In this document: piece by piece, positions 1 to 23,446 of the stretch
Position numbering within the stretch: the stretch's first letter is position 1
Layout of the letters: each line of letters opens with the position of its first letter
Assembly (NCBI RefSeq): GCF_003991155.1
Contig: NZ_CP031293.1
Direction: 5' to 3' (one strand)
Length of the DNA: 64,000 bases
Origin: Escherichia coli
Lineage (GTDB): Bacteria; Pseudomonadota; Gammaproteobacteria; Enterobacterales; Enterobacteriaceae
Notes under the pieces: model-generated
The model's database searches: none
Seen by the model: the letters and a program-made list of their open reading frames with translations, nothing else
Told to the model about the DNA's origin: nothing
Program-made: the position numbers and the translations under genes

Positions 1-323
1 ATGCTGCTGTTGCCTTGTTAAAAGCTTTACCACGCTTTAAGGGTATAAATTTTGTATTCCCTGCCACCCGAAAGGGACAACTCTCGGATACGGCTTTGCT
101 GGCAGTCCTAAAGCGAATGGGATACACCGATTTAACACAGCATGGGTTTAGATCGACATTCCGTGATTGGGCTGGTGAAACGACCAACTATCCGCGTGAG
201 GTAATTGAACATGCGTTAGCTCACCAGTTGGCAGATAAGGCAGAGGCTGCGTATCAACGTGGGACATTATGGCCTAAGCGGGTGGCGTTGATGGATGAAT
301 GGACGGGGTTTTGTGTTTCTTAG
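1..323 (+). CDS. Tyrosine recombinase (phage-type integrase), C-terminal fragment; 5' end lies upstream of the window
   Basis: ORF 15..323 is open to the window edge; translation carries catalytic-domain motifs (HGFRSTF, REVIEHALAH) typical of lambda/P4-type integrases. Confidence 0.7.
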   Translation, partial: AAVALLKALPRFKGINFVFPATRKGQLSDTALLAVLKRMGYTDLTQHGFRSTFRDWAGETTNYPREVIEHALAHQLADKAEAAYQRGTLWPKRVALMDEWTGFCVS

Positions 324-2572: not shown

Positions 2573-3130
2573 TTAAATAGACGTGAAAACTAATGTATTA
2601 CTTGTGGCATTCGTACATGCTGCTGCCGTAGCTGCCACATCGAGTGTTCCTCCTGCGGCTTTAACAACCTTGGTTCCAACCGTGGTAATGTAGAAATTAC
2701 CTGCTGCCGCTGTCGCAATCTTCACACATTCCGCTGCTGGCACATTATCGTATGTGATAGTGAAAGAAGAGCCAGCCGCTGATGATGGTCCTGTAGCTGT
2801 AGCAGCCAGCGTCACATTACCTTTAAAGGCATTAATGGGTTTAGCTGCCGTTCCTGACCCACTTAACATATTGTCAGGGAAGATTTTTGCCTGAACAGCC
2901 ACAGTATTTGTCAGGCCAGTAAAGCTTGATGCCGACGTGTATAATGCTTTAACACCTGCCTGTATGGTGGCAATGTTATTGGATTCTGCCTGCGCTCTTT
3001 GTGAAGCCTGAACCTTGGGATAAACGATAAAAGCCGCTACCACTAATGCAGCAATGATGCCCAAAACAAGTAATAGTTCGAGTAGTGAGAAACCTTTCTT
3101 GCTTTTTCTTTTGTTATTTAATAAAACCAT
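2573..3130 (-). CDS. pilS: Type IVb major prepilin, PilS-like
   Basis: Long basic leader [13 protein letters not shown] followed by [16 protein letters not shown], characteristic of type IVb prepilins; GGAGA RBS 6 nt before ATG. Confidence 0.65.
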
Positions 3131-3525: not shown

Positions 3526-3831
3526 TTATTTTTGTCTTCCATCCATTTGCGCCAGAAACTTCCTGCCTGCTTTTATATACGTTATTTTTTCAATATCATT
3601 CAGGTCAGGAACTGAAAGCAAAATCCCCATAACGAGTTCTTTATCCACCTGTTCGATATCGCAATGCATAGCTTTAGCTACTTCCGCGCCAAGTATAATC
3701 TTTAGCCTTGTTTCAATTTTCTTTCGTTCTGATTTCTCCAGAGACTTAAGACGATTAAGTTCAAGCTGAGCAAAAGCAACCTTTTGCTTTAATGTTTTTT
3801 CTGTTCTTGATCTTTTACTTTCATCACTCAT
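3526..3831 (-). CDS. Hypothetical small coiled-coil protein; weak resemblance to TraD-like relaxosome accessory proteins
   Basis: ORF; start overlaps the stop of the upstream gene by 4 nt (ATGA-type coupling); motif RKKIETRLKIILGAEVAKA recalled as similar to Ti-plasmid TraD, from memory only. Confidence 0.35.
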   Translation of the reverse strand: MSDESKRSRTEKTLKQKVAFAQLELNRLKSLEKSERKKIETRLKIILGAEVAKAMHCDIEQVDKELVMGILLSVPDLNDIEKITYIKAGRKFLAQMDGRQK

Positions 3832-4193
3832 ACAACATCATCCTTACCCAAAAAATAGGCAAATACTTCATCCACGCCTTTCATGGCGAGAACATCACTG
3901 AACAGCAAAATAGACGTCGCCAGATTTCCCGCTTCATCTGATGGTATAGACCTAAAGAACTCCATCACTTCATCTTCCTCATGGTATCGTGTCATCGCAT
4001 CAACTTTTATTTGCCATTCACCAATAGCAAAAAGCGCTGCTTCAAAGCAGGACTGAAATCGTTCTATATCAGGGCCAAAATGATACGTTATTCCGTCTTT
4101 ATATTTCGCAATGAAAATTTCAGTAATTTTTTCATTACTGCTCTGAAGAATATGAGTATCAATAGTAAAAACATAGGCCAGTTGTGCATTCAT
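3828..4193 (-). CDS. Hypothetical protein, first gene of a two-gene overlapping operon
   Basis: Clean 121-aa ORF with AT-rich upstream region; no recognisable motif. Confidence 0.4.
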   Translation of the reverse strand: MNAQLAYVFTIDTHILQSSNEKITEIFIAKYKDGITYHFGPDIERFQSCFEAALFAIGEWQIKVDAMTRYHEEDEVMEFFRSIPSDEAGNLATSILLFSDVLAMKGVDEVFAYFLGKDDVV

Positions 4194-4497: not shown

Positions 4498-5376
4498 ATG
4501 AATATTTTTAGTCTCATCACTGATCCTGATAATGCAGTTTATTTGACTTTAGATAAATTTTATAAAAAAACGCATAGACATTATCCCTATATTCAAAAGG
4601 TTAATGGAGAAACTAAAGCATACGCTTTATGCCCAAGATGTCACAATCCGGTCCTTTTGGTTAATAGAATAAATAATCAGACGGAATCAAAAACTTTATA
4701 TGCTAAGCATGTTAAACATGATGTAATGGGTATCGCATCATATTCTCAACAAGGTTATGATGATTGCTCACTTGCAAACCCAACAAATCTTGATGCAAAA
4801 ATCAAAAGAGATATTAATAATAAATCAAATAATGAAATAAAAGATGCTGTTAAAAATTATTTCGATCTACTTATATACTCAATTGAATCACATATAGGCA
4901 TCAATTTTTCTGATTCCGTTTTAGCTCAAATGCTTGAGGATTTCAACGCTTGTGATGGACACCAGTATAGAGCGATTAACTTATATAATTTACCGTTATC
5001 ATTTGTCTACATCGCAAATGCTCAGGATCTTTACGGTTGTAGAGTAAACGGAAAAATCAAAGAAAATATAGATAAAAACTCAGAATCATTTATAACATCC
5101 GGTACAGAACTTTATGATAAGAGCCTGTATTATGTTAATAGAAAGAAAGGCAGTCCTTATAATAAAATCCTGTTTTATTTCTCTAATCATACCATTTCGA
5201 CAGAAAATGATGATGAATCGGTAATGTTATATATTGTAGAAAAAAAACAGGATCAGACTATAGATTCAGCAAAAATACTCTATAAAGAAAAAATATATTT
5301 TGATGGCACATATTTTTTTAATACTATGAAAAAAAGAGCACGGCTAAACGATTTAGCAAAATCAATTATTCAATAG
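4498..5376 (+). CDS. Hypothetical protein with Cys/His motif (CPRCHNPV ... HVKHD), possible zinc-ribbon or HNH-like
   Basis: 292-aa ORF, very AT-rich, Lys/Asn-rich; divergent from the 3526-4193 operon. Confidence 0.45.
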   Translation: MNIFSLITDPDNAVYLTLDKFYKKTHRHYPYIQKVNGETKAYALCPRCHNPVLLVNRINNQTESKTLYAKHVKHDVMGIASYSQQGYDDCSLANPTNLDAKIKRDINNKSNNEIKDAVKNYFDLLIYSIESHIGINFSDSVLAQMLEDFNACDGHQYRAINLYNLPLSFVYIANAQDLYGCRVNGKIKENIDKNSESFITSGTELYDKSLYYVNRKKGSPYNKILFYFSNHTISTENDDESVMLYIVEKKQDQTIDSAKILYKEKIYFDGTYFFNTMKKRARLNDLAKSIIQ

Positions 5377-5379
5377 TAT

Positions 5380-5688
5380 TTATTCTGGAATGCTAATTAT
5401 TTTTGATAACGGCTGGTTTAATACCAGCTTTATCAAGTCGATAGATATTGATGATGTATCAAATTGTTCCAACTCATACTCTGCAAAAGGTAAATCGCCG
5501 ACCACTTTTATATTCCCCATTATCTTTCCCAGAATATCACAAAATTCTTGATCTGTTTTTGGTTTTTCAATCAATCCTAAATCCAGTAACTTTTGATATT
5601 CAAATAATGCTCTAAGTGTTGCATTTTCCCAAAAAGTAAATTCCTGAAAATATGTTCCGTCTTCATATCTAGATTTTCTAAACTCCAT
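5380..5688 (-). CDS. Hypothetical protein
   Basis: 102-aa ORF convergent with 4498-5376; no recognisable motif. Confidence 0.35.
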   Translation of the reverse strand: MEFRKSRYEDGTYFQEFTFWENATLRALFEYQKLLDLGLIEKPKTDQEFCDILGKIMGNIKVVGDLPFAEYELEQFDTSSISIDLIKLVLNQPLSKIISIPE

Positions 5689-5989
5689 TATATCTCCTTA
5701 TGTTAATTATTATACATGGAGTAATACAATTATTCTCATCAGTCAAATCATAAAATTATAATAAATTCCATGAGTGGGTAAAGCTCAGTAGAAAAATAAA
5801 ATAGTGCAACGCATGTGATAGTATTTACTAACCAAAAACATCTGACACTCTCCGCGTTACTTATTTTTGCGCATTCGTGATTTTATTTTCACCTATCAAT
5901 TTTTAACTCTATTTTTCAATCTCAACCTGTGAATTGTGCAACACATAACACTCTCTGTTTTATTGGTTTTTTTCATCAAATTTAGCTAT

Positions 5990-6036
5990 CCCGCCTTACG
6001 GCGGGAATAATTAATACCTCTTTTGCCCTTACGGGC
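5990..6036 (+). other. Candidate oriT: two GC-stem hairpins sharing a TTAC loop
   Basis: cccgcc-ttac-ggcggg (5990-6005) and gccc-ttac-gggc (6025-6036), about 300 bp upstream of the relaxase gene; relaxase genes usually sit next to their oriT. Confidence 0.3.
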
Positions 6037-6337
6037 CTTTTCTTTACTCTTTTTGTCCTGTGGATGTGAAACCTACACCTTTAATCCAGTTTGCGCCGCT
6101 TATTCCGGCGTATTATTTTACAACAATACATATATTTCGTATTAATTGATAAGAGGGGCATTTTACATTGGCTTATTTTCTTAAAGACAATGCCCACCTA
6201 TACACTGCGTAGCAGTGTGTGGGGTCTACCGACGGTTGCCTGCCGCAGGCTAAAAGCAAAACCAAGGTCAACGTCAACCCCGAAGTTTTTCTGACGAAAA
6301 ACTAACAGCAGCATTTATATTTGAGGTTATATTTTTA

Positions 6338-7819
6338 ATGGCGATTTTTCATCTGGATTTTAAAATTGTGAAACGAAGCGAAGGCATGACTTCTGTTGCG
6401 AAAGCTGCCTACCATGCCCGTACACGTATTACGGATGATCGCATTGGAGAAACATTTGATTTCAGCCACAGAACAGATCTTCATGGTCATATTATATTGG
6501 CACCTGTTTCCGCACCCTCTCATATTGTTGAAAGCTCCTCAACACTCTGGAATGAAGTTGAAAGAGTGGAACGCCAGAACAATGGTCAAACAGCCCGTTA
6601 TTTTGATGTCGCTATCCCCGTAGAACTCAGTAATGATGACAAGAAAAAATTGGTTGCTGAATACTGCCAGAAGAACTTTGTTGATAAGGGAATGATTGCC
6701 GATATCGCATTTCATGATTTAGACGGTAAAAATCCCCATGCTCACGTTATGTTAACCCTGAAAACTGTTGGTCCCGAAGGCTTCGGTAAAAAAGACAGAA
6801 GCTGGAATGATAAGAAGATAATGATCCAATGGCGTGAGTCATGGGCCACGATGTCAAACAGCTACCTTGAAGCTATTGGAAGTGAAGAACGTATCGATCA
6901 CCGTTCTCTCAGGACGCAATGTGCTGATGCCCTTACCCAAGCAGAAGAAGCATTCAGCGCTGAAGAGAAAGCATTCTGGCTTGCCAAGGCAACAGAAACA
7001 AACCGCCCGGCAATGCAGCGTGTTCATCGTGCTAAATGGAATAACACCGAGTCTCAGGAACAGCGAGCTGCTGAACAAGCTCAACGCGATCATCAAATTG
7101 AGGAAGCAAAGAAGGTCTACACTACATTCAGTGAGCTACCACTGGAAATCGTGGTTGATGTTCGCTCTTACTCTGTTTACCAGCTTCCTGAACCGGAAGA
7201 GATCGTTCTCCCTGACTTCCCAGCTACAACTAAACAGCAACCTGTTTCAGCGACACCAGCCATAAGCAGAAGACCAGCAGCAAAATCTTACCGTGATCCC
7301 AGTAAGGTCAGTAAAGTAAATGTTTCAGGGAAGAAATCCCCTGTTCTGGTTGCGCCTGAACCAACTGCATCCACTAAATTGAAAACCCCATCTCTTCAAA
7401 AAACCAGAGCGATGAACCGCGCTCCTGTGAGGAGTAGGAAACAGACCAAGCCCCGCCAGAATGGTTTGTTTAAACGTTTCACGCTACTGATAGTAGGATA
7501 TATAAGAGAGAAATTTATCTGGGCCAAAAGGAAAGCAGATACCACTGATGCTGACCATGACAAGCGTATCGCAGAGAACTATATCTATGATGAAGTGCTG
7601 GGTGTCAATGTTCCACGTTCGGAGTTTGAAAAACGTACCAAATTTAACAATGGTGACTATAAATTAACACCTGATGAAATCAAGCGTTTCCCAAGCCGTC
7701 CTAATCAGGAACAGCCGGAAGTTAATAGAAGCATAGATCTCACACCTTCAATGCCACCAGAACACATGAGGCAAGGAAGCGCGCCAAAACTGAGTCCACC
7801 GAGCCATAAGAGACATTAA
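6338..7819 (+). CDS. mobA: MobA/MobL-family (MOBQ-type) conjugative relaxase
   Basis: N-terminus MAIFHLDFKIVKRSEG...AAYHARTRI parallels RSF1010 MobA (MAIYHL...), with the histidine triad region HAHVMLT and IDHRSLRTQ; C-terminal half is low-complexity. Confidence 0.8.
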   Translation: MAIFHLDFKIVKRSEGMTSVAKAAYHARTRITDDRIGETFDFSHRTDLHGHIILAPVSAPSHIVESSSTLWNEVERVERQNNGQTARYFDVAIPVELSNDDKKKLVAEYCQKNFVDKGMIADIAFHDLDGKNPHAHVMLTLKTVGPEGFGKKDRSWNDKKIMIQWRESWATMSNSYLEAIGSEERIDHRSLRTQCADALTQAEEAFSAEEKAFWLAKATETNRPAMQRVHRAKWNNTESQEQRAAEQAQRDHQIEEAKKVYTTFSELPLEIVVDVRSYSVYQLPEPEEIVLPDFPATTKQQPVSATPAISRRPAAKSYRDPSKVSKVNVSGKKSPVLVAPEPTASTKLKTPSLQKTRAMNRAPVRSRKQTKPRQNGLFKRFTLLIVGYIREKFIWAKRKADTTDADHDKRIAENYIYDEVLGVNVPRSEFEKRTKFNNGDYKLTPDEIKRFPSRPNQEQPEVNRSIDLTPSMPPEHMRQGSAPKLSPPSHKRH

Positions 7820-11001: not shown

Positions 11002-11613
11002 CTATTTTTGTTTATATAAATCGTAGGAACTTAATTTTTTAGATTTCTCATAGGCATTTTCAATGTATAAAGATACATCTGCTAAAAATCGGTCTTCTTC
11101 TATCAATGAAATATAAGAACCAGTCAATTGATCATATGATTTGCACTCAGGGCAACAATATTTATCTTCTGAAGTTAAATTAAACCTATTATTATTAATA
11201 ATGTCATATAGTTCAGTTGTGTCAATAGTTCTTGATGAACATCCATCAGGCTTGATTGAAGAAGATACTAACCAGTCATAGCTATTATTAACCTTCATTA
11301 TCACACCAACAATGCCATTAGTTCGGGAAGTGGTTCCTCCTCTCTTGTATTCTTTCAATGCATATTCAATTTCCCAGTCAATCCATTTACTTTTAATCAT
11401 ATTCGGGGAAATAATAACGATTAAAACAGATGTCCCGAAAATCATATTTTTAAGATTGTTCTTTATATTATCTACTGTTGTATTACTTATATCAGGAGAC
11501 TCCGATGTTTCCCCTTTATAGTAAACAGCATCATCACCTAATGCCTTGACAATTTTGTCTCTTAAATCCTGTGCTTCACTATATTTATATGATATGAATG
11601 TTTCATGAGCCAT
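11002..11613 (-). CDS. thsB: Thoeris ThsB, TIR-domain protein
   Basis: N-terminal ETFISYKYSEAQ and WIDWEIEYAL are typical TIR-domain signatures; 16 bp downstream of thsA on the same strand. Confidence 0.8.
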   Translation of the reverse strand: MAHETFISYKYSEAQDLRDKIVKALGDDAVYYKGETSESPDISNTTVDNIKNNLKNMIFGTSVLIVIISPNMIKSKWIDWEIEYALKEYKRGGTTSRTNGIVGVIMKVNNSYDWLVSSSIKPDGCSSRTIDTTELYDIINNNRFNLTSEDKYCCPECKSYDQLTGSYISLIEEDRFLADVSLYIENAYEKSKKLSSYDLYKQK

Positions 11614-11629
11614 AACTTCACCTAATATA

Positions 11630-13066
11630 TTATTTATTCAGTTTGTTTATGATTTTTATTACAACTTCTATTGTTTTTTTTACCGAAAAATCTTTTTCAG
11701 TAAGCTCAGACAAATCATTATATATCCATTCATTACTTCCATAATATTTCTTAGGATCTTGTGATATTTGTTCAAATATATATTTAGACATATACCCGGT
11801 ATTGGGTAAAGGAATTGGTACAAGGCCATGTTGAACAGCAATCTCAAACTCTCTAAATACTCCCCTAGCATTTACTATATCATTATTTTCCTCTTGTTTA
11901 TTTCCAAAAATAAACAATGCAATACCACCAAGAGGAATCATTCTCTGTCTATACTCCTCCCAAAGTTCTTGAATATCTTTCCCCTTACTGACAGTTTGTG
12001 GAAATGGTCTAACAATGAGCTGTTCTTCTGATAATTTATCTGGCCTACTATAAATTGCATCCAACGCACCATTTATCACAGAACTTCCGACGCCCCATCC
12101 AAATCCATTCACTATCCTATAATTATTCTTTATAATCTCATATGCTAATGTGTGAATAAAATCTAATGCTTTAGGTCTTTCAAGATCCCCATATTTTTCT
12201 GCACTACCAGAAATAAATATCGTTTTCTTTTTAAATGATTGCTCTATCTTAGCTAGAATTTTAGGGATGTCAGAATATTCATCTATTAATAATACTTGTA
12301 TACCAAATCTCTTGAGATCATCGATTCGCAGTTTTTGTTTTCTGATCTTATAATTTACTGTTTCTTCATCATCTAGGGAATTATTAGCCTCATTCTTCAT
12401 AAAGCAATAGTGTGTCCTCTTGTCCCCAGAATGAGTATACAAACGACTCAAAATGTAATCCAGATTTGGGTCGGTAAAACTAAACCCTATGAATAGAAAG
12501 GTTTTTGATATTAAATCTCCGCTAAGTGCGGTGATAAATGAAGCGTGTGTTCTGTAGTATTTTTCATACTGCTCTTTATATAAAATAGCCTTGGATGGGG
12601 ACGAAATATCACCATGCATTTTATATACTATCGCGTCTCGCTTAGGTCGTGTTGTATTTAAATCATCTATGTTTCTTTTTACATCTGCAATTTTGTAAAC
12701 TTTCCGCAGACTATCTTCAATTAAAGTGTCATAGTTTGTTGTCCAAAATGTCTTAATCGGTAAACGAGCAATTATATTATGAACCTCTGATGGCTCGGCT
12801 TGCTCAGAAAACTCTTCGATTATCTTCCTTGTGAGTTTTGTAGCCCCTTTCTTTTCATTAACATGAAATTGAGCAAGCGATATTAGATCGTCTTCTTTAT
12901 TAATGTCTAAACTAAGCTCTTCTGCTATATCGCTAAGTAATTCTTTCCAATCAACATAACCTTGACTTTTAGACATTCCTGCGCCAGAAAAAATAGCAGC
13001 ACAATCATTTTCAAGATCTTTAACAAAATCTTTTATGAAAACTTCAATTTCATTACTAAACGTCAT
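11630..13066 (-). CDS. thsA: Thoeris ThsA, SIR2 (NAD-binding) plus SLOG domain protein
   Basis: From ATG at 13066 (GGAG RBS 9 nt upstream) the protein MTFSNEIEVFIKDF...AAIFSGAGMS...TTNYD...MHGD (SIR2) then IFISGSA...GFGWGVGSSVINGALD (SLOG) closely parallels Bacillus cereus ThsA as I recall it. Confidence 0.85.
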   Translation of the reverse strand: MTFSNEIEVFIKDFVKDLENDCAAIFSGAGMSKSQGYVDWKELLSDIAEELSLDINKEDDLISLAQFHVNEKKGATKLTRKIIEEFSEQAEPSEVHNIIARLPIKTFWTTNYDTLIEDSLRKVYKIADVKRNIDDLNTTRPKRDAIVYKMHGDISSPSKAILYKEQYEKYYRTHASFITALSGDLISKTFLFIGFSFTDPNLDYILSRLYTHSGDKRTHYCFMKNEANNSLDDEETVNYKIRKQKLRIDDLKRFGIQVLLIDEYSDIPKILAKIEQSFKKKTIFISGSAEKYGDLERPKALDFIHTLAYEIIKNNYRIVNGFGWGVGSSVINGALDAIYSRPDKLSEEQLIVRPFPQTVSKGKDIQELWEEYRQRMIPLGGIALFIFGNKQEENNDIVNARGVFREFEIAVQHGLVPIPLPNTGYMSKYIFEQISQDPKKYYGSNEWIYNDLSELTEKDFSVKKTIEVVIKIINKLNK

Positions 13067-13274
13067 TACACTTATCTCCATTTTAACTATTATTCCCAAA
13101 AGTAGAGAATAAACCTTTCAACCGGAGTTCATGAAACAGCATCTAAAAATATTCTGCCGGATACGAGTAAAATCATACTGGATATAAAAACAGTTGTCGA
13201 GAACTAAAACAATTGAAAACATGGCCAGATGGCATAGATAATATTACATACGAAAATTATTAACCAGATAATAT

Positions 13275-14237
13275 TCACGATGGTGATGTTTCATCGGACA
13301 TCCTTACATTATAAAGAAAAACCAGATGCATATTTACATCATTTCTTTTCTTAAAATAGCTATAACGCTGGAGGCTCAGCCATTTTGATGTTGCCAATAC
13401 GTATGGGCAGCCCTCCTTCCTGCTGGCACAACTTCTTAATGGATTGCCACTCCGCTTTTCAGACTCCATGTGAGAAGTGAGCGAATCAAAAGCACCGTCG
13501 GCTACGACGATGGTAGGTTCTTCATCTGTTTCATTGCCGATCGACTCCGTATTTGTGCTTTCAGCACGTTCTTCTTCCAGTTCAGCCAGACTCGCTTTCA
13601 GCTCATCAAGGCTGCTGGCTGCGTCTTTTGGTGCATAGAAGAACAGCCCGCTAATGAAGATGGCTTCCATAACCTCTCTAAAAGAAAACGAGGTATCGCC
13701 ATAAACAAAGCAACTGTGCTTGGAACTCTTCACACCCGATACGTTTTTCTTCAGCAAACCGTCTTTCGGTGAAGTCATTAATGTCTGTTTGCTATAGAGG
13801 ATTACAGGAAGATTTTTAATTTGTTGAACATCGCCGCTGATACTCCAGCGTTCTTTATCTCCTTTGATAAAGCCGGAAGCATCACAGCTACTTTCTATGT
13901 CAAACTCATCAGTCGGGAAGCGCTCGCGATTAAAATAGGTCGAAAAATCCTCCCCTTCTTCCATATCCTGACGCTTGTAAGCGCGATAAACCGAGCTTCG
14001 ACGGTCAATTCCGATCCATTCAATATCCCATGCCGTTGGCCCGGACGGTTTTCTTACCTCATCTATATAAGCACCAACATCTCTGTCCAGATAAGCTGCT
14101 AACAAAGCCTTCCATGGTTCTATTGCCAGAAAGATACTTGCCAGCGTTGTTCCTTCTTCAATCAGAACGGTATGGTGGAAGAACCGGAGAAGAAAGAACG
14201 GATCGGTATTGGCTATGACGTTCTGGATGGATAGCAA
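13275..14237 (-). CDS. Hypothetical protein with acidic central region
   Basis: 320-aa ORF immediately upstream of thsA; no recognisable domain. Confidence 0.35.
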   Translation of the reverse strand: MLSIQNVIANTDPFFLLRFFHHTVLIEEGTTLASIFLAIEPWKALLAAYLDRDVGAYIDEVRKPSGPTAWDIEWIGIDRRSSVYRAYKRQDMEEGEDFSTYFNRERFPTDEFDIESSCDASGFIKGDKERWSISGDVQQIKNLPVILYSKQTLMTSPKDGLLKKNVSGVKSSKHSCFVYGDTSFSFREVMEAIFISGLFFYAPKDAASSLDELKASLAELEEERAESTNTESIGNETDEEPTIVVADGAFDSLTSHMESEKRSGNPLRSCASRKEGCPYVLATSKWLSLQRYSYFKKRNDVNMHLVFLYNVRMSDETSPS

Positions 14238-14369
14238 TGGAACGGCAGCGGTTTCATCGTAATTGGATTGAAACCGTAGTATTGCATCGGAACAAAAATT
14301 AACTTACCTTCCATTGCTCATCCTTCTCCTGTAGTTATCAGACTAAATATTTTACCAGATCATAGGTTA

Positions 14370-15436: not shown

Positions 15437-15474
15437 GCAGCACTTCGTGATTGTTGCCAACAATCACTTTGCTG
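15437..15474. repeat. 38-bp repeat containing a perfect palindrome gtgattgttg-c-caacaatcac (copy 1)
   Basis: Direct reading of the sequence; 10-bp arms. Confidence 0.6.
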
Positions 15475-15576
15475 AACAGGGCTTGTCCCTGTTAATTATG
15501 GATTTATCCAAAAAAAGATCGCGTCGAAGACGCATATAAAGTAAAAGGAAAATTAATTAAGCTCTCACAGTAAATG

Positions 15577-15614
15577 CAGCGGTTCGTGATTGTATGCAAC
15601 AATCACTTCGCTGT
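15577..15614. repeat. 38-bp repeat, copy 2 (gtgattgt-atgca-acaatcac), about 85 percent identical to copy 1
   Basis: Direct reading; 140 bp from copy 1 in an ORF-free stretch. Confidence 0.6.
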
Positions 15615-17359: not shown

Positions 17360-17764
17360 ATGAGTGAAGCTCTCAAGGCACTGAACAATATTCGTACACT
17401 TCGCGCACATGCTCGTGAAACAGATCTGACAACTCTGGAAGAGATGCTGGAAAAGCTCTCTGCTGTCGTTGAAGATCGCCGTGAGGAAGAAAATTCAGCC
17501 CGTAAAGAACAAGAAGAACGTCAGGCTAAACTGGAAGCCTTCCGCCAGAAATTGTTAGAAGACGGTATCGATCCTACAGAACTACTCGCTGCTGTTAGTT
17601 CATCCCAGCCTAAAGCCAAATCAACTCGTGCTCCTCGTCCTGCTAAATACAAATATACAGATGAAAACGGTAATGAGCAGACTTGGACGGGTCAGGGCCG
17701 TACTCCTAAAGCAATCGCCGCTGCTATCGAAGCTGGTAAGACACTGGAAGACTTTGCAATCTAA
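17360..17764 (+). CDS. H-NS family nucleoid-associated protein (island-encoded paralogue)
   Basis: [20 protein letters not shown]...[25 protein letters not shown] aligns closely with E. coli H-NS, including the DNA-binding TWTGQGRTP motif. Confidence 0.85.
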
Positions 17765-18282: not shown

Positions 18283-18525
18283 TCATTCCTTTAGATCTTC
18301 TGGCGAAACCCGGTCACATGCCATTTTCTCAAGCATTCTTTGTAATCTTTTCATTTTCAACTTACGCGCTTTTTTCTCACCAATCTCCTGATAGTATTCT
18401 TCACGACGTTCGTTGACCACGCTCCTGAAATTTTTCAAAAGCTGTTCAAGTGTTTTGATGTCAGTAGTTGCGGCTTCCGCTTGGATTTTTTTATACATAT
18501 ACATCACATGAAATTCATCGATCAT
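18283..18525 (-). CDS. hnsT: Truncated H-NS-like protein (H-NST-like, oligomerisation domain only)
   Basis: 80-aa protein with TLEQLLKNFRSVVNERREE matching the H-NS N-terminal dimerisation region but no DNA-binding domain. Confidence 0.6.
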   Translation of the reverse strand: MIDEFHVMYMYKKIQAEAATTDIKTLEQLLKNFRSVVNERREEYYQEIGEKKARKLKMKRLQRMLEKMACDRVSPEDLKE

Positions 18526-19311: not shown

Positions 19312-19530
19312 TTATGCAGCGTTCTGGCGTGAGTTTCGAATAGTCGTTTCAATCCATTCATCAATCTCACTTTCAACAAAAGCAACACACCTCGGACCTA
19401 TTTTTACTCTGTCAGGAAAGTTTCCTTCCTTAATACGCTCATATAAAGTCGTGCGACTGAATCCCACTCGATTTAAAACATCAGGAACGCGGATAAATCG
19501 TTTTACGCTGGTTTCAATATTTTCTTTCAT
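19312..19530 (-). CDS. alpA: AlpA-family phage regulatory protein (MerR-like HTH)
   Basis: IRVPDVLNRVGFSRTTLYERIKEGNFPDRVKIGPRCVAFVESEIDEWI matches the AlpA pattern; AGAGGA RBS 6 nt before ATG 19530. Confidence 0.7.
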   Translation of the reverse strand: MKENIETSVKRFIRVPDVLNRVGFSRTTLYERIKEGNFPDRVKIGPRCVAFVESEIDEWIETTIRNSRQNAA

Positions 19531-19745: not shown

Positions 19746-20639
19746 TTATTTTTTCTTATTCCTGTCGTCTTCTACATGCTTTTCAACAGGGGAGTCTTTC
19801 AAGTGGTTGTTTTCCATCATGTAATCTTCAAGCGATTTCAGATAGCTCGCATCCGTCAGAAAAGCCATTGCTAACGGGTAGTCCGTTGCCTTTAGCATTC
19901 CTTCATCACGATCGTTGTCGCTGTCCTCGTGAAGCAGCGAAGAAATCAGTGAAAGCGGGATTTTAATGCCGTTATCTTCTCCCCAGAAGATCAGGTCCAT
20001 CATCGGGATAAGACGATATTCAATGATTTTTCTGAATGTGCTTTTGCCGAAACGATACTCTCTTGGCGCTGGAGACTTCATCTTAAGCTGTCTCTTCCAT
20101 TGAGGGATCAGCACTTTCAGATGTTCAATGATTTCTTCAGTTGATGCCTCTTCCAGATGAATATCGACAGTAATGCGTGAAAGATTATTAAGGGATGTTT
20201 CTTTTAGATACTCGGACAGAAATTCGGATTCGCTTAACGCGGAAAGCTCAGGCGTGGCTTCGGTTAATGCCAGCGTTTTCGCATAAAATTGCGCGTGGCT
20301 TCGTGTCGTAGGATTTACCGCGTAGGTTCTGGCAAGCTCATGTCCAAGGGTAGCGGTATCACCACTGAAAAAGATTTCACCGCTGAGGATCTTGTTGCGG
20401 TAATCATCCAGCATTAATCGGTTAAAGGTAGGTATGGTGTTCCGGCTCAACAACATTCTGTAAGCCAAGATACGCCGCTCAACCTCAACATAAAACTGCT
20501 GTAAGGTGAGTTTCTCTATCGCCTCATATCGTTCCACATCAAACCATGCTTCCAGTGCTTTCCTGATTTCACTTCTTTTCATCCATCCTCCAACAATCCA
20601 TTTCCTTTGATATATCTTCACAGGATCCGTTTGGAACAA
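19746..20639 (-). CDS. Hypothetical protein occupying the position next to tRNA-Ser where an integrase would be expected
   Basis: 297-aa ORF, no tyrosine- or serine-recombinase motifs recognisable; same orientation as alpA. Confidence 0.4.
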   Translation of the reverse strand: MFQTDPVKIYQRKWIVGGWMKRSEIRKALEAWFDVERYEAIEKLTLQQFYVEVERRILAYRMLLSRNTIPTFNRLMLDDYRNKILSGEIFFSGDTATLGHELARTYAVNPTTRSHAQFYAKTLALTEATPELSALSESEFLSEYLKETSLNNLSRITVDIHLEEASTEEIIEHLKVLIPQWKRQLKMKSPAPREYRFGKSTFRKIIEYRLIPMMDLIFWGEDNGIKIPLSLISSLLHEDSDNDRDEGMLKATDYPLAMAFLTDASYLKSLEDYMMENNHLKDSPVEKHVEDDRNKKK

Positions 20640-20860: not shown

Positions 20861-20950
20861 TGGCGGAGAGAGGGGGATTTGAACCCCCGGTAGAGTTGCC
20901 CCTACTCCGGTTTTCGAGACCGGTCCGTTCAGCCGCTCCGGCATCTCTCC
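20861..20950 (-). tRNA. serU: tRNA-Ser (anticodon CGA), serU
   Basis: Reverse complement reads GGAGAGATGCCGGAGCGGCTGAACGGACCGGTCTCGAAAACCGGAGTAGGGGCAACTCTACCGGGGGTTCAAATCCCCCTCTCTCCGCCA, matching the E. coli serU sequence as I recall it. Confidence 0.95.
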
Positions 20951-22017: not shown

Positions 22018-22183
22018 AATTTTAGTCTTGAGACATCTCTATAAGTCTCAGGATAGTTAAAAAACAAGAACTTATCTTTACCCGGTTGTCTCGCAAGAGG
22101 CTGCTGGGTTTCTTGACATCCATAGTTTTTAGGGGCCTAATCAGGGGCCTCACGGTTCGGTGAGCAAACGGAGCCCCCACGCT

Positions 22184-23446
22184 ATGGCATTAACAGACAC
22201 CGCTATTCGCAAGACTAAACCCTCTGACAAACCCTTCAAAATGACGGACAGTTCTGGACTGTACCTGTTGATCAAACCTAACGGCTCAAAACTCTGGTAT
22301 ATGAAGTACCGCATCGACGGCAAAGAGAAGAAACTGGCCTTTGGCCCCTACCCGGAGATCTCCCTGTTGCAGGCTCGCCGCCTGCGCGAAACAGCACGCA
22401 ATAACATTCATGCAGGCGTCGATCCGGCTGCGGTGAAGCAAACCGAGAAACAGAAGAGGAAAAACGGGCAGACGTTCAGCCAGATCGCCATCAACTGGCA
22501 TAGCGAGCATAAACGCTGGTCTGAGCATTACGCGAAAACGGTTATGCGCAGGCTGGAAATGTACGTTTTCCCGGATATCGGGGATCGCCTTATCGAGGAG
22601 ATCGAAACGGAGGATTTGTTATTCACGTTGCGCAAGGTAGAGAGTAAAGGCTTTCTGGAAATCACCGCGCGGCTGAAAAACTACGTCACCGATATCATGC
22701 ACTACGCGATGAAAAAGAAACTGCTCAAAGCGAACCCGGCGCTGTATCTGGACGGTGAGTTTGCCGCGCCAGAAACCAGTCACTACCCGGCCCTGTCGCT
22801 GGATAAGTTGCCTGAGCTTTTATCCCGGACAGAGAATTACTGCGGCAGGCTGCTGACGAAATACGCCCTCAAACTTTCGCTGCTGTTTTTCGTGCGCTCC
22901 AGCGAGCTACGTTTTGCCCGCTGGAGTGAAATCGACTGGCAGCAAAAACTGTGGGTGATCCCGGAAGAACGCGAGCAGATCGAAAACGTGCGCTTCTCTT
23001 ACCGGGGGGCGAAAATGAAAATCCAGCACATTGTGCCGCTGTCGGATCAGGCGATTGCGATACTGAAGCAGATCGAGGCCCTCTCCGGGCATCTGGCCTT
23101 TATTTTTCCCGGCGAATACGACCAGAACAAGTGCATGAGCGACAACACCGTCAACAAGGCGCTGCGCGTGATGGGTTACGACACCAAAAAGGATATCTGC
23201 GGGCATGGCTTCCGGGCAATGGCCTGTAGTGCGCTGAGCGAATCGGGATTATGGAGCAAAGAAGCCATTGAAAAGCAGATGAGCCACCAGGAAAGAAACA
23301 GCGTCCGTGCTGCCTATATTCACAAGGCTGAATATCTGGAGGAACGGATCGAGATGATGCAGTGGTGGTCAGATTATCTTGATGCAAACAGTGACGGGTA
23401 TGTCTCGGCTTACCAGTATGCCCGCCGCCTAAAACAGGCGTCGTAA
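22184..23446 (+). CDS. int: P4-type tyrosine integrase
   Basis: MALTDTAIRKTKPSDKP...LYLLIKPNGSKLW N-terminus and C-terminal HGFRAMA...RAAYIH catalytic motifs; immediately downstream of tRNA-Asn. Confidence 0.9.
   Translation: MALTDTAIRKTKPSDKPFKMTDSSGLYLLIKPNGSKLWYMKYRIDGKEKKLAFGPYPEISLLQARRLRETARNNIHAGVDPAAVKQTEKQKRKNGQTFSQIAINWHSEHKRWSEHYAKTVMRRLEMYVFPDIGDRLIEEIETEDLLFTLRKVESKGFLEITARLKNYVTDIMHYAMKKKLLKANPALYLDGEFAAPETSHYPALSLDKLPELLSRTENYCGRLLTKYALKLSLLFFVRSSELRFARWSEIDWQQKLWVIPEEREQIENVRFSYRGAKMKIQHIVPLSDQAIAILKQIEALSGHLAFIFPGEYDQNKCMSDNTVNKALRVMGYDTKKDICGHGFRAMACSALSESGLWSKEAIEKQMSHQERNSVRAAYIHKAEYLEERIEMMQWWSDYLDANSDGYVSAYQYARRLKQAS

Follow-up and report, generated by a model that had tools for sequence, protein, structure and literature searches.

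A candidate MOBQ-type origin of transfer upstream of the relaxase gene of an EARL-type island at serU in Escherichia coli

INTRODUCTION

Which piece of DNA would serve as the origin of transfer (oriT) of a chromosomal island of Escherichia coli that carries a relaxase gene, and is such an island mobilizable at all? This question is raised by positions 5990-7819 of a 64,000-nucleotide stretch of contig NZ_CP031293.1 (hereafter, the window), where the relaxase gene mobQ follows a non-coding leader with several GC-rich hairpins. A preliminary description of the locus had read the island as an integrative mobilizable element (IME) that hijacks a helper conjugative system, and had put forward two hairpins with a shared TTAC loop as its candidate oriT.

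According to our analysis, the region probably serves DNA processing in an integrative mobilizable island of the EARL (ROD21-like) type, which in this E. coli chromosome occupies serU. EARL islands, among them ROD21, ICEKp258.2 and the serU island of E. coli, are described as unable to transfer themselves and as probably relying on a conjugative element in the same cell for mobilisation (PMC6035254, PMC10763509); the reading of the locus as a mobilizable island in need of a helper is reasonable, and it had already been published for this family. Excision is known for ROD21 (Salmonella Enteritidis) and ICEKp258.2 (Klebsiella pneumoniae ST258), and the serU island of uropathogenic E. coli is named in the EARL-family literature as the source of the H-NS paralogue Hfp. 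What we add is a concrete oriT and nick-site prediction for EARL islands and their small-plasmid relatives.

RESULTS

The mobQ product has the features of an intact MOBQ relaxase

The mobQ gene (6338-7819, plus strand) encodes a protein of 493 aa that we assigned to the MOBQ (MobA/MobL) relaxases by means of profiles, structure alignments and ratios of nonsynonymous to synonymous substitution (dN/dS). The Pfam profile MobA_MobL (PF03389) covers residues 19-208 with an E-value of 2.5e-53, and the whole protein scores 248 bits against the NCBIfam model MobQ (NF041496), passing its curated equivalog cut-off of 200, so that the assignment made in the preliminary description is borne out. Regarding solved structures, the best alignment was given by the NES relaxase of pLW1043/pSK41 (4HT4, E 7e-24). 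RSF1010 MobA (2NS6), to which the N-terminus had been likened before, aligns more weakly (E 1e-8) and nonetheless places the catalytic residues in register: Tyr25 (codon 6410-6412) falls on MobA Y25 and the corresponding NES position, and His126, His134 and His136 (FHDLDGKNPHAH; codons 6713-6715, 6737-6739 and 6743-6745) fall on the MobA/NES triad. The protein has both the motif I Tyr and the motif III triad HxDx(n)NPHxH of the MOBQ family. When these residues were inspected for inactivating changes, all of them were intact; they are also invariant in sets of 5 and 21 homologues, and the motifs AAYH(A/N)R and NPHAH are kept across the 21 sequences compared (20 of them homologues from other genera).

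Against 18 island homologues, the relaxase domain gave dN/dS values of 0.06 to 0.20, with dS above 1 in most comparisons and synonymous sites largely saturated. The catalytic domain spans approximately residues 1-230, and the C-terminal half of the protein has no recognised domain. The profile TraA_Ti also matches the N-terminal relaxase domain (E 1e-50), below its full-length cut-off. Judging from these features, mobQ encodes an intact HUH relaxase on which purifying selection acts, and its predicted activity is site- and strand-specific nicking.

An extended hairpin upstream of mobQ aligns with known MOBQ oriTs

Approximately 520 bp upstream of mobQ are conserved among islands, far above the flank at 5700-5800 (conservation 0.40), and the oriT elements reach values of 0.90-0.98. 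Within this leader, 100-150 bp upstream of mobQ, we located the predicted oriT, an extended hairpin at 6193-6223 (minus strand) that is conserved, covaries, and aligns with the oriT inverted repeats of pLW1043 and RSF1010. It is formed by an outer stem (CCCAC with GTGGG), a 4-nt internal loop (CTAT), an inner 7-bp stem (ACACTGC with GCAGTGT) and a 3-nt loop (GTA). The hairpin is conserved in at least 38 islands and in small MOBQ plasmids, and the block CAATGCCCAC(C/T)TATACACT-stem-loop-GTGTGGGG lies upstream of mobQ in nearly all the island homologues examined and in all the small plasmids. These plasmids, of 3.5-4.1 kb and from Citrobacter, Enterobacter, Klebsiella and E. coli, are the closest true plasmids in the plasmid collection; their relaxases are 40-56% identical to that of the window over the relaxase domain.

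Covariation was measured on an alignment of 23 distinct sequences, in which the hairpin was tested together with the 3-bp mini-hairpin that follows it. We found 95% of the cells paired, compared with 24-60% when the partners were slid, and changes on both sides in 8 of the 14 pairs; none of 500 shuffles was as good as the observed hairpin.

The comparison with known oriTs provides a nick position. On the minus strand, the window reads ACACTGC-TAC-GCAGTGT-ATAGGTGGG-CATT, and the small plasmids ACACTCG-GAA-CGAGTGT-ATAAGTGGG-CATT. The oriT of pSK41/pLW1043, which we found at 100% identity next to nes, reads GCGAACG-GAA-CGTTCGC-ATAAGTGCG-CCCT, and that of RSF1010 ends in GAGAAACCGG-TAAGTGCG-CCCT. 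In the joint alignment, the columns TA..G.G/C..T (the slash marks the nick) are invariant. The island core A-TAGGTGGG/CATT matches TAAGTGCG/CCCT at 8 of 12 positions, and the small-plasmid core A-TAAGTGGG/CATT at 9 of 12. AATGCCC, the complement of GGGCATT, does not vary in any of the 23 distinct sequences, not even in plasmids whose relaxase is only 40% identical. The minus strand hence presents what a MOBQ-type oriT presents: an inverted repeat, 8-9 nt, and a nick core. Its polarity agrees too, as the strand that runs from the inverted repeat to the nick points away from the relaxase gene in pLW1043 and in an IncQ1 plasmid, and does likewise here; in RSF1010 it also has the accessory gene mobC ahead of it. 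In sequence, spacing and polarity, the hairpin and its nick core are thus homologous to the oriTs of pSK41/pLW1043 and RSF1010. In RSF1010 and pSK41, the nick falls between G and C of GTGCG/CCCT. By homology, we predict the nick region of the island to be 5'-ATAGGTGGG/CATT-3' (6189-6201, core 6189-6197, minus strand), with the cut between 6193 and 6192 (GTGGG/CATT).

PMC3832669 gives NWACCNNTAAGTGCGCCCTYNN as the consensus for MOBQ nick sites, and a consensus is also given in PMC10333310. A search of the window for TAAGTGCGCCCT, the nick consensus of RSF1010, in which 3 mismatches were allowed, gave no match in 5689-6340, and elsewhere in the window fewer than expected by chance; as the exact-consensus search gave nothing, we regard the window core as a divergent MOBQ version. 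An Rfam scan of positions 1-22100 at E <= 1 gave no match in the region, and the literature searched held no report of an oriT for the EARL family. Separately, an exact 15-nt copy of the nick core (GACAATGCCCACCTA, window 6186-6200) occurs 20 bp inside the left att repeat of a near-identical RefSeq record (L001 13258-13272). We attribute it to chance: about 0.25 such copies are expected, and it is absent from a sibling serU island (L089) and from other islands.

The same hairpin could be used with the opposite polarity, the nick falling on the plus strand directly 3' of it (GTGGG/GTCT, 6223/6224) and mobQ entering the recipient first. This was our initial reading, and we dropped it after considering the polarity of pLW1043 and IncQ1 and the TAAGTG of the minus strand. 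It draws on the fact that small plasmids and a few islands have GTGGG/CCCT at the 6223/6224 position, identical to GTGCG/CCCT at 8 of 9 positions and followed by the covarying mini-hairpin, which recalls the CCC-TTAC-GGG found after the pSK41 nick. However, the bases 3' of a plus-strand nick vary (GTCT, CCCT, TCTC), while AATGCCC on the other side does not; only the minus strand has the TAAG hallmark and a spacer of 8-9 nt; and the resulting polarity would be opposite to that of RSF1010 and pLW1043. We therefore judge a plus-strand nick unlikely and retain the minus-strand prediction.

The module belongs to an island inserted at serU

The window is part of an E. coli chromosome, with 100% identity to many RefSeq E. 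coli chromosomes, and its positions 1-27900 are colinear with NZ_CP041996 (3 mismatches). In the annotation of that record, the relaxase island is a low-G+C segment of 21.9 kb between zinT and the tRNA-Ser gene serU. A direct repeat of 14 bp, TGGCGGAGAGAGGG, marks both ends of the island. The copy within the window, the att core, is the 3'-terminal 14 bp (20861-20874) of tRNA-Ser(CGA) serU (20861-20950, minus strand), and the second lies 21,936 bp leftward, outside the window. Comparison with the empty site of K-12 (zinT-yodB-serU) revealed a precise insertion with duplication of the 14 bp.

At the left edge of the window there is the C-terminal part of a tyrosine integrase (1-323, open reading frame (ORF) 15-323, plus strand), whose gene starts 898 bp further left. 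The integrase of the island is complete, with 406 aa, as seen in the near-identical RefSeq record (L001 13404-14624). The preliminary description had listed an integrase fragment together with pilS and pilV; the two pilus genes are indeed present, whereas the fragment is an artefact of the window edge and not a decayed gene, because the window starts inside a complete gene. That description had also reported an absence of coupling protein and mating-pore genes, which holds for the whole island: no type IV secretion system (T4SS), coupling protein or mating-pore gene is annotated in the complete island of the near-identical record, and the gene annotated as 'TraD' encodes a small PF06412 protein. 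The largest ORFs of the island have 493, 489 and 487 aa, and since none is large enough and none is annotated so, the island encodes neither VirB4 nor a coupling protein. As befits an IME, it provides neither mating-pair formation nor a coupling protein itself.

The module is present in 787 of 5426 complete E. coli genomes (approximately 15%), in every case on the chromosome. In PLSDB, the region was found on no plasmid except for three large records that carry an EARL-type island, one of which is a chromosome fragment filed as a plasmid. A scan of Enterobacterales with one genome per species gave 38 further islands, with relaxase domains 72-95% identical to that of the window. Across the EARL-type family, integration sites differ (serU, ssrA) and many genera are represented, which implies repeated horizontal transfer.

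Mobilizable or domesticated

Several considerations weigh against our interpretation of the region as a working mobilisation module. One comes from ROD21, the only relative studied by experiment, where deletion of the relaxase gene SEN1980 left transfer, which took place at a very low frequency of about 1e-8 and needed plasmid pSLT, unaltered (PMC3976249); a role of the relaxase in EARL mobilisation is therefore hypothetical. PLSDB yielded no helper plasmid with the same oriT at blastn sensitivity. The predicted nick position and transferred strand rest on homology, and the island nick core departs from the consensus at 4 of 12 positions (TAGGTGGGCATT vs TAAGTGCGCCCT). Since the predicted mobQ promoter precedes the covarying hairpins, mRNA structure could account for some of their covariation. 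Finally, the roles that we propose for the TTAC hairpins are conjectural.

One could argue, then, that the island is domesticated and effectively immobile, that the relaxase module is a relic or has another role, and that the structures upstream of it are transcriptional or mRNA elements. The ROD21 deletion and the low frequency of ROD21 transfer would fit this view, as would the position of the covarying hairpins within the predicted 5' untranslated region of mobQ and the gene expression changes to which ROD21 excision has been linked (PMC6035254). However, the catalytic domain is under purifying selection in different genera (with synonymous sites saturated), the hairpin and nick core are homologous to experimentally defined oriTs, mobilizable plasmids of 3.5-4 kb keep the same module, and the varied integration sites and hosts speak of repeated transfer. 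We consider domestication improbable on balance. As for the claim of a helper-dependent IME, the intact MOBQ relaxase, the integrase, the att repeats, pilS/pilV and the lack of mating-pore and coupling genes are in line with it, as is the published work on EARL islands; the ROD21 deletion is a caveat.

In K. pneumoniae plasmid pINF177.2 (IncFIB/HI1B; L004 1-8815), an EARL-type island adjoins genes of an integrating conjugative element of the TIGR037xx type. It is possible that elements of this type act as helpers.

The TTAC hairpins are unlikely to hold the nick site

The two GC-rich hairpins of the preliminary description are present, 300-348 bp upstream of the mobQ ATG. Hairpin 1 (5990-6005, CCCGCC-TTAC-GGCGGG, loop GTAA on the minus strand) has a conservation of 0.91, and hairpin 2 (6026-6037, GCCC-TTAC-GGGC, replaced by GTCC-TTC-GGAC in the other island clade) one of 0.75. 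Both are kept in related islands of many Enterobacterales genera and, being conserved far above the neighbouring flank, are under constraint. Folding of 5980-6045 as single-stranded DNA beats shuffled sequence, with z values of -4.1 for the plus and -3.7 for the minus strand.

Stability and conservation among islands would suit a relaxase recognition and nick site located in the TTAC hairpins themselves, and so would the presence in hairpin 2 of GCCCTTACGGG, identical to 11 nt of pSK41/pLW1043 that include the post-nick CCCTTACGGG. Yet the hairpins are absent from the small plasmids with 40-56% identical relaxases, even though relaxase, TraD gene and the 6189-6233 element are all common to these plasmids and the islands, and no TAAGTG-type nick motif is found next to them. 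Compensatory change is nearly lacking as well: hairpin 1 shows none, its substitutions being confined to one arm and breaking the pairing, and hairpin 2 has a single covarying pair, C:G to T:A, in 14 sequences of one clade, which separates the two clades. The second island clade, which reads GTCCTTCGGAC, does not have the match of hairpin 2 to the post-nick CCCTTACGGG of pSK41, and where the match exists it is not on the strand predicted to be transferred but on its complement; we take it as a chance match. From the absence in plasmids, the missing motif and the near lack of compensatory change, we conclude that the TTAC hairpins are unlikely to be nick-site hairpins, a role that we regard as very improbable, and that the earlier oriT proposal was probably wrong, the homologue of known oriTs being the hairpin at 6193-6223.

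What the TTAC hairpins would do instead is a matter of conjecture. If the minus strand is transferred as predicted, they fall within its first ~200 nt; counted together with a third hairpin (see below), the cluster would occupy nt 80-200 from the leading end, with GTAA or GAA as loop sequences. A promoter-like site directed leftward lies on one side of the hairpins and one directed rightward on the other. Patterns of G-T wobble gave no information on strand preference. We also considered them as terminators and rejected this, given that no T-tract is conserved on either strand across clades and that only the third hairpin is terminator-like. We would tentatively view them as an island-specific accessory element of the oriT-proximal leading region, and our conjectures about its role, in decreasing order, are the binding of an accessory protein or regulator in an extended oriT, single-strand priming or establishment, and an operator. 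A bolder version, rather doubtful in our opinion, would take the whole hairpin cluster (5990-6112) as a single-strand establishment signal and add to it orphan pilS/pilV that re-tip the type IVb pilus of the helper to the advantage of the island. Such a signal could be a priming site for host primase or RNA polymerase, by analogy with the minus-strand origins of phages and rolling-circle plasmids. If this were true, it would render the incoming single-stranded island duplex before integration, whereas the small MOBQ plasmids that have this relaxase could do without such a signal.

Other conserved elements upstream of mobQ

On the mobQ side of the oriT hairpin there are two small elements with a conservation of 0.98: the mini-hairpin GTC-TACC-GAC (6224-6233), which covaries as GTC with GAC, CCC with GGG and CTC with GAG, and the palindrome GCCTGC-C-GCAGGC (6238-6250). 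Between the oriT and the start of mobQ we also found an inverted repeat, AGTTTTTC-TGAC-GAAAAACT (6284-6303, conservation 0.97), which is present in distant small MOBQ plasmids too. A promoter-like site for mobQ, TTTACA-18-GACAAT (6162-6191, plus strand), was identified by consensus match alone; it overlaps the nick core, and the TTTACATTG block is conserved.

On the opposite side, the third GC-rich hairpin, TGCGCCG-CTTATTC-CGGCGTA (6092-6112), carries a T-rich tail on the plus strand and is found in one island clade only (conservation 0.57). Two more non-coding blocks are conserved further upstream, ACTCTCCGCGTTACTTATTTT (5846-5866, 0.91) and AACCTGTGAATTGTGCAACA (5924-5943, 0.83), the latter with a leftward promoter-like site (TTCACA 5933 to TAGAGT 5906). 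A small ORF in this leader was discarded because the reading frame differs between the window and the Klebsiella island (L004). Among possible replication signals, iterons and DnaA boxes were looked for, and no direct repeats suggestive of a vegetative origin were found. In the island of Yersinia pseudotuberculosis (L005 13140-13262), a long microsatellite of the hexanucleotide CTCTGG lies between the traD operon and mobQ.

Gene content of the island and its surroundings

From left to right, the island encodes the integrase, a VOC protein, a PilV-like adhesin, a PilS-like pilin, a TraD homologue, a 121-aa protein, two ORFs of unknown function and MobQ, and beyond it several unknown proteins, ThsB/ThsA, RepL, a DUF4756 protein, full-length and truncated H-NS, a regulator of the helix-turn-helix (HTH)/AlpA type and a DUF6387 protein.

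The genes for the TraD homologue (101 aa, 3526-3831) and the 121-aa protein (3828-4193), both on the minus strand, form a putative relaxosome accessory operon. The former matches Pfam PF06412 (E 1.3e-10) and is a Ti-type accessory protein, not a coupling protein; the latter had no family match in profile searches. A small operon of traD with one or more hypothetical genes, divergent to mobQ, occurs in several of the small MOBQ plasmids, and in two more distant ones only traD is annotated on that side. In the window, two ORFs of 292 aa (plus strand) and 102 aa (minus strand), with approximately 30% G+C, form an insertion (4498-5688) that separates the traD operon from the mobQ leader, as judged against the small plasmids and the Klebsiella island; neither had an NCBIfam or PHROGs match.

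The PilV-like adhesin (1057-2520) and the PilS/BfpA-like major pilin (2573-3130) are encoded on the minus strand by orphan type IV pilin genes, with no pilus assembly genes beside them. Resemblance of the former to IncI PilV is limited to about 70 residues, with approximately 48-55% identity. At the tRNA-proximal end, annotation places an excision module on the minus strand: an HTH/AlpA-type putative recombination directionality factor (RDF; 19312-19530) and a DUF6387 gene (19746-20582). A pair of an RDF and a conserved gene is described as a hallmark of the family (PMC10763509). The AlpA and DUF6387 pair is also found in the Klebsiella island, and the Yersinia island has AlpA with no annotated DUF6387 gene.

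The cargo includes a type I Thoeris anti-phage system (11002-13099, minus strand), with ThsB (TIR; 11002-11613, PADLOC E 3e-84) and ThsA (SIR2-SLOG; 11630-13099, PADLOC E 9e-203). Adjoining it is an ORF of 320 aa (13275-14237, minus strand), a frameshifted pseudogene in the annotation of the near-identical RefSeq record. Upstream of repL, there are two copies (15437-15474 and 15576-15613) of a 38-nt inverted-repeat motif, GCAGC..GTGATTG-N7-CAATCAC..GCTG, and in other islands a repeat of this type also lies at the far end of the traD-mobQ intergenic region (e.g. L004 ~14272-14312). These shared repeats suggest a common operator for replication and mobilisation genes. Annotation also gives a full-length, Hfp-like H-NS paralogue of 134 aa (17360-17764) and a truncated, H-NST-like one of 80 aa (18283-18525); H-NS/H-NST paralogues have been described for the serU and IE3 islands (PMC6035254).

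To the right of serU and mtfA, the window continues with a tRNA-Asn gene, a second tyrosine integrase (22160-23446), a RelE fragment and an IS3 element, and then with a high-GC cluster (27842-55961) in which Hcp and VasL are annotated and the ORFs have the usual sizes for a type VI secretion system with VgrG and Rhs. The region 21942-64000 is a separate island, unrelated to conjugation.

DISCUSSION

Taking the region as the DNA-processing module of an EARL-type IME, transfer could proceed as follows. The integrase and the RDF would excise the island as a circle. MobQ, aided by the Ti-type TraD homologue and the 121-aa protein, would bind the hairpin at 6193-6223 and, by means of Tyr25, nick the minus strand at GTGGG/CATT (6193/6192). 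It would then pilot the nicked strand through the coupling protein and T4SS of a helper element, so that the non-coding leader with its three GC-rich hairpins, two of them TTAC, would enter first and mobQ last. In the recipient, the relaxase would reclose the strand at the re-formed hairpin and nick core, and the circle would be converted to duplex DNA and integrate at serU. A concrete predicted oriT and nick site make the mobilisation hypothesis directly testable and would enable a search for the helper. Among the EARL relatives to which this would apply are Salmonella ROD21 and, in the epidemic lineage ST258 of K. pneumoniae, ICEKp258.2; such islands bear virulence-associated and defence cargo.

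Comparison with known systems

Like SGI1, other mobilizable genomic islands (MGIs) and PIMEs, the island is integrated, carries an integrase and mobilisation functions of its own and would depend on a helper; several of those elements also have defence cargo and replication genes. It differs from SGI1, which uses MpsA and an IncC helper, neither of which is a feature here. PIMEs are defined by IncP-type traJ/traI, trbJ and trbL (10.64898/2026.01.12.698999), and we rejected membership in this group, as the island has no trbJ, trbL or traJ and its oriT is of the MOBQ type.

Regarding the DNA transfer and replication (Dtr) genes of Ti plasmids, the likeness lies in the relaxase domain matching TraA_Ti, in TraD (PF06412) and in an accessory operon, which the small-plasmid relatives carry in divergent orientation to the relaxase gene. 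Unlike Ti plasmids, the island has no TraA helicase domain, recognisable TraC, TraG coupling protein or Trb system.

In RSF1010/R1162 (IncQ1), the relaxase is a MOBQ HUH enzyme that uses Tyr25 and a His triad, the nick comes after an inverted repeat and a spacer of 8 nt, accessory gene(s) lie on the nick-distal side and the relaxase gene is the last to be transferred, all of which we find or predict here. The relationship is, however, much more distant (E 1e-8), and MobA of RSF1010 has a C-terminal primase and is accompanied by MobB/MobC, whereas no primase domain is found in the island relaxase and its putative accessory proteins are the Ti-type TraD homologue and the 121-aa protein.

The resemblance extends further in pSK41/pGO1/pLW1043, where a 7-bp inverted repeat with a 3-nt loop is followed by A-TAAGTG(C/G)G and then by the nick, where a short outer stem joins the nick-proximal bases to the bases 5' of the repeat, and where the polarity is away from the relaxase gene. 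Still, pSK41 is a conjugative plasmid of Gram-positive bacteria with its own T4SS, its post-nick sequence is CCCT instead of CATT, and the C-terminal domain of NES differs.

Finally, the island compares with the EARL family in its whole layout. It is set apart by its position in tRNA-Ser and not in the commoner tRNA-Asn, by its type I Thoeris cargo and by the two extra ORFs at 4498-5688. As in the other members, its G+C content is low, it is inserted at the 3' end of a tRNA gene, it bears defence cargo and it lacks a T4SS. A P4-type integrase lies at one end, and an AlpA-type RDF with a conserved gene of ~840 bp at the other. Between them, genes for a MobA/MobL MOBQ relaxase and a TraD homologue, for a type IV pilin and a pilus protein, and for H-NS and truncated H-NS paralogues are found, so that the integrase and RDF ends, the relaxase and TraD pair and the pilin and pilus protein pair of the EARL layout are all present in this island.

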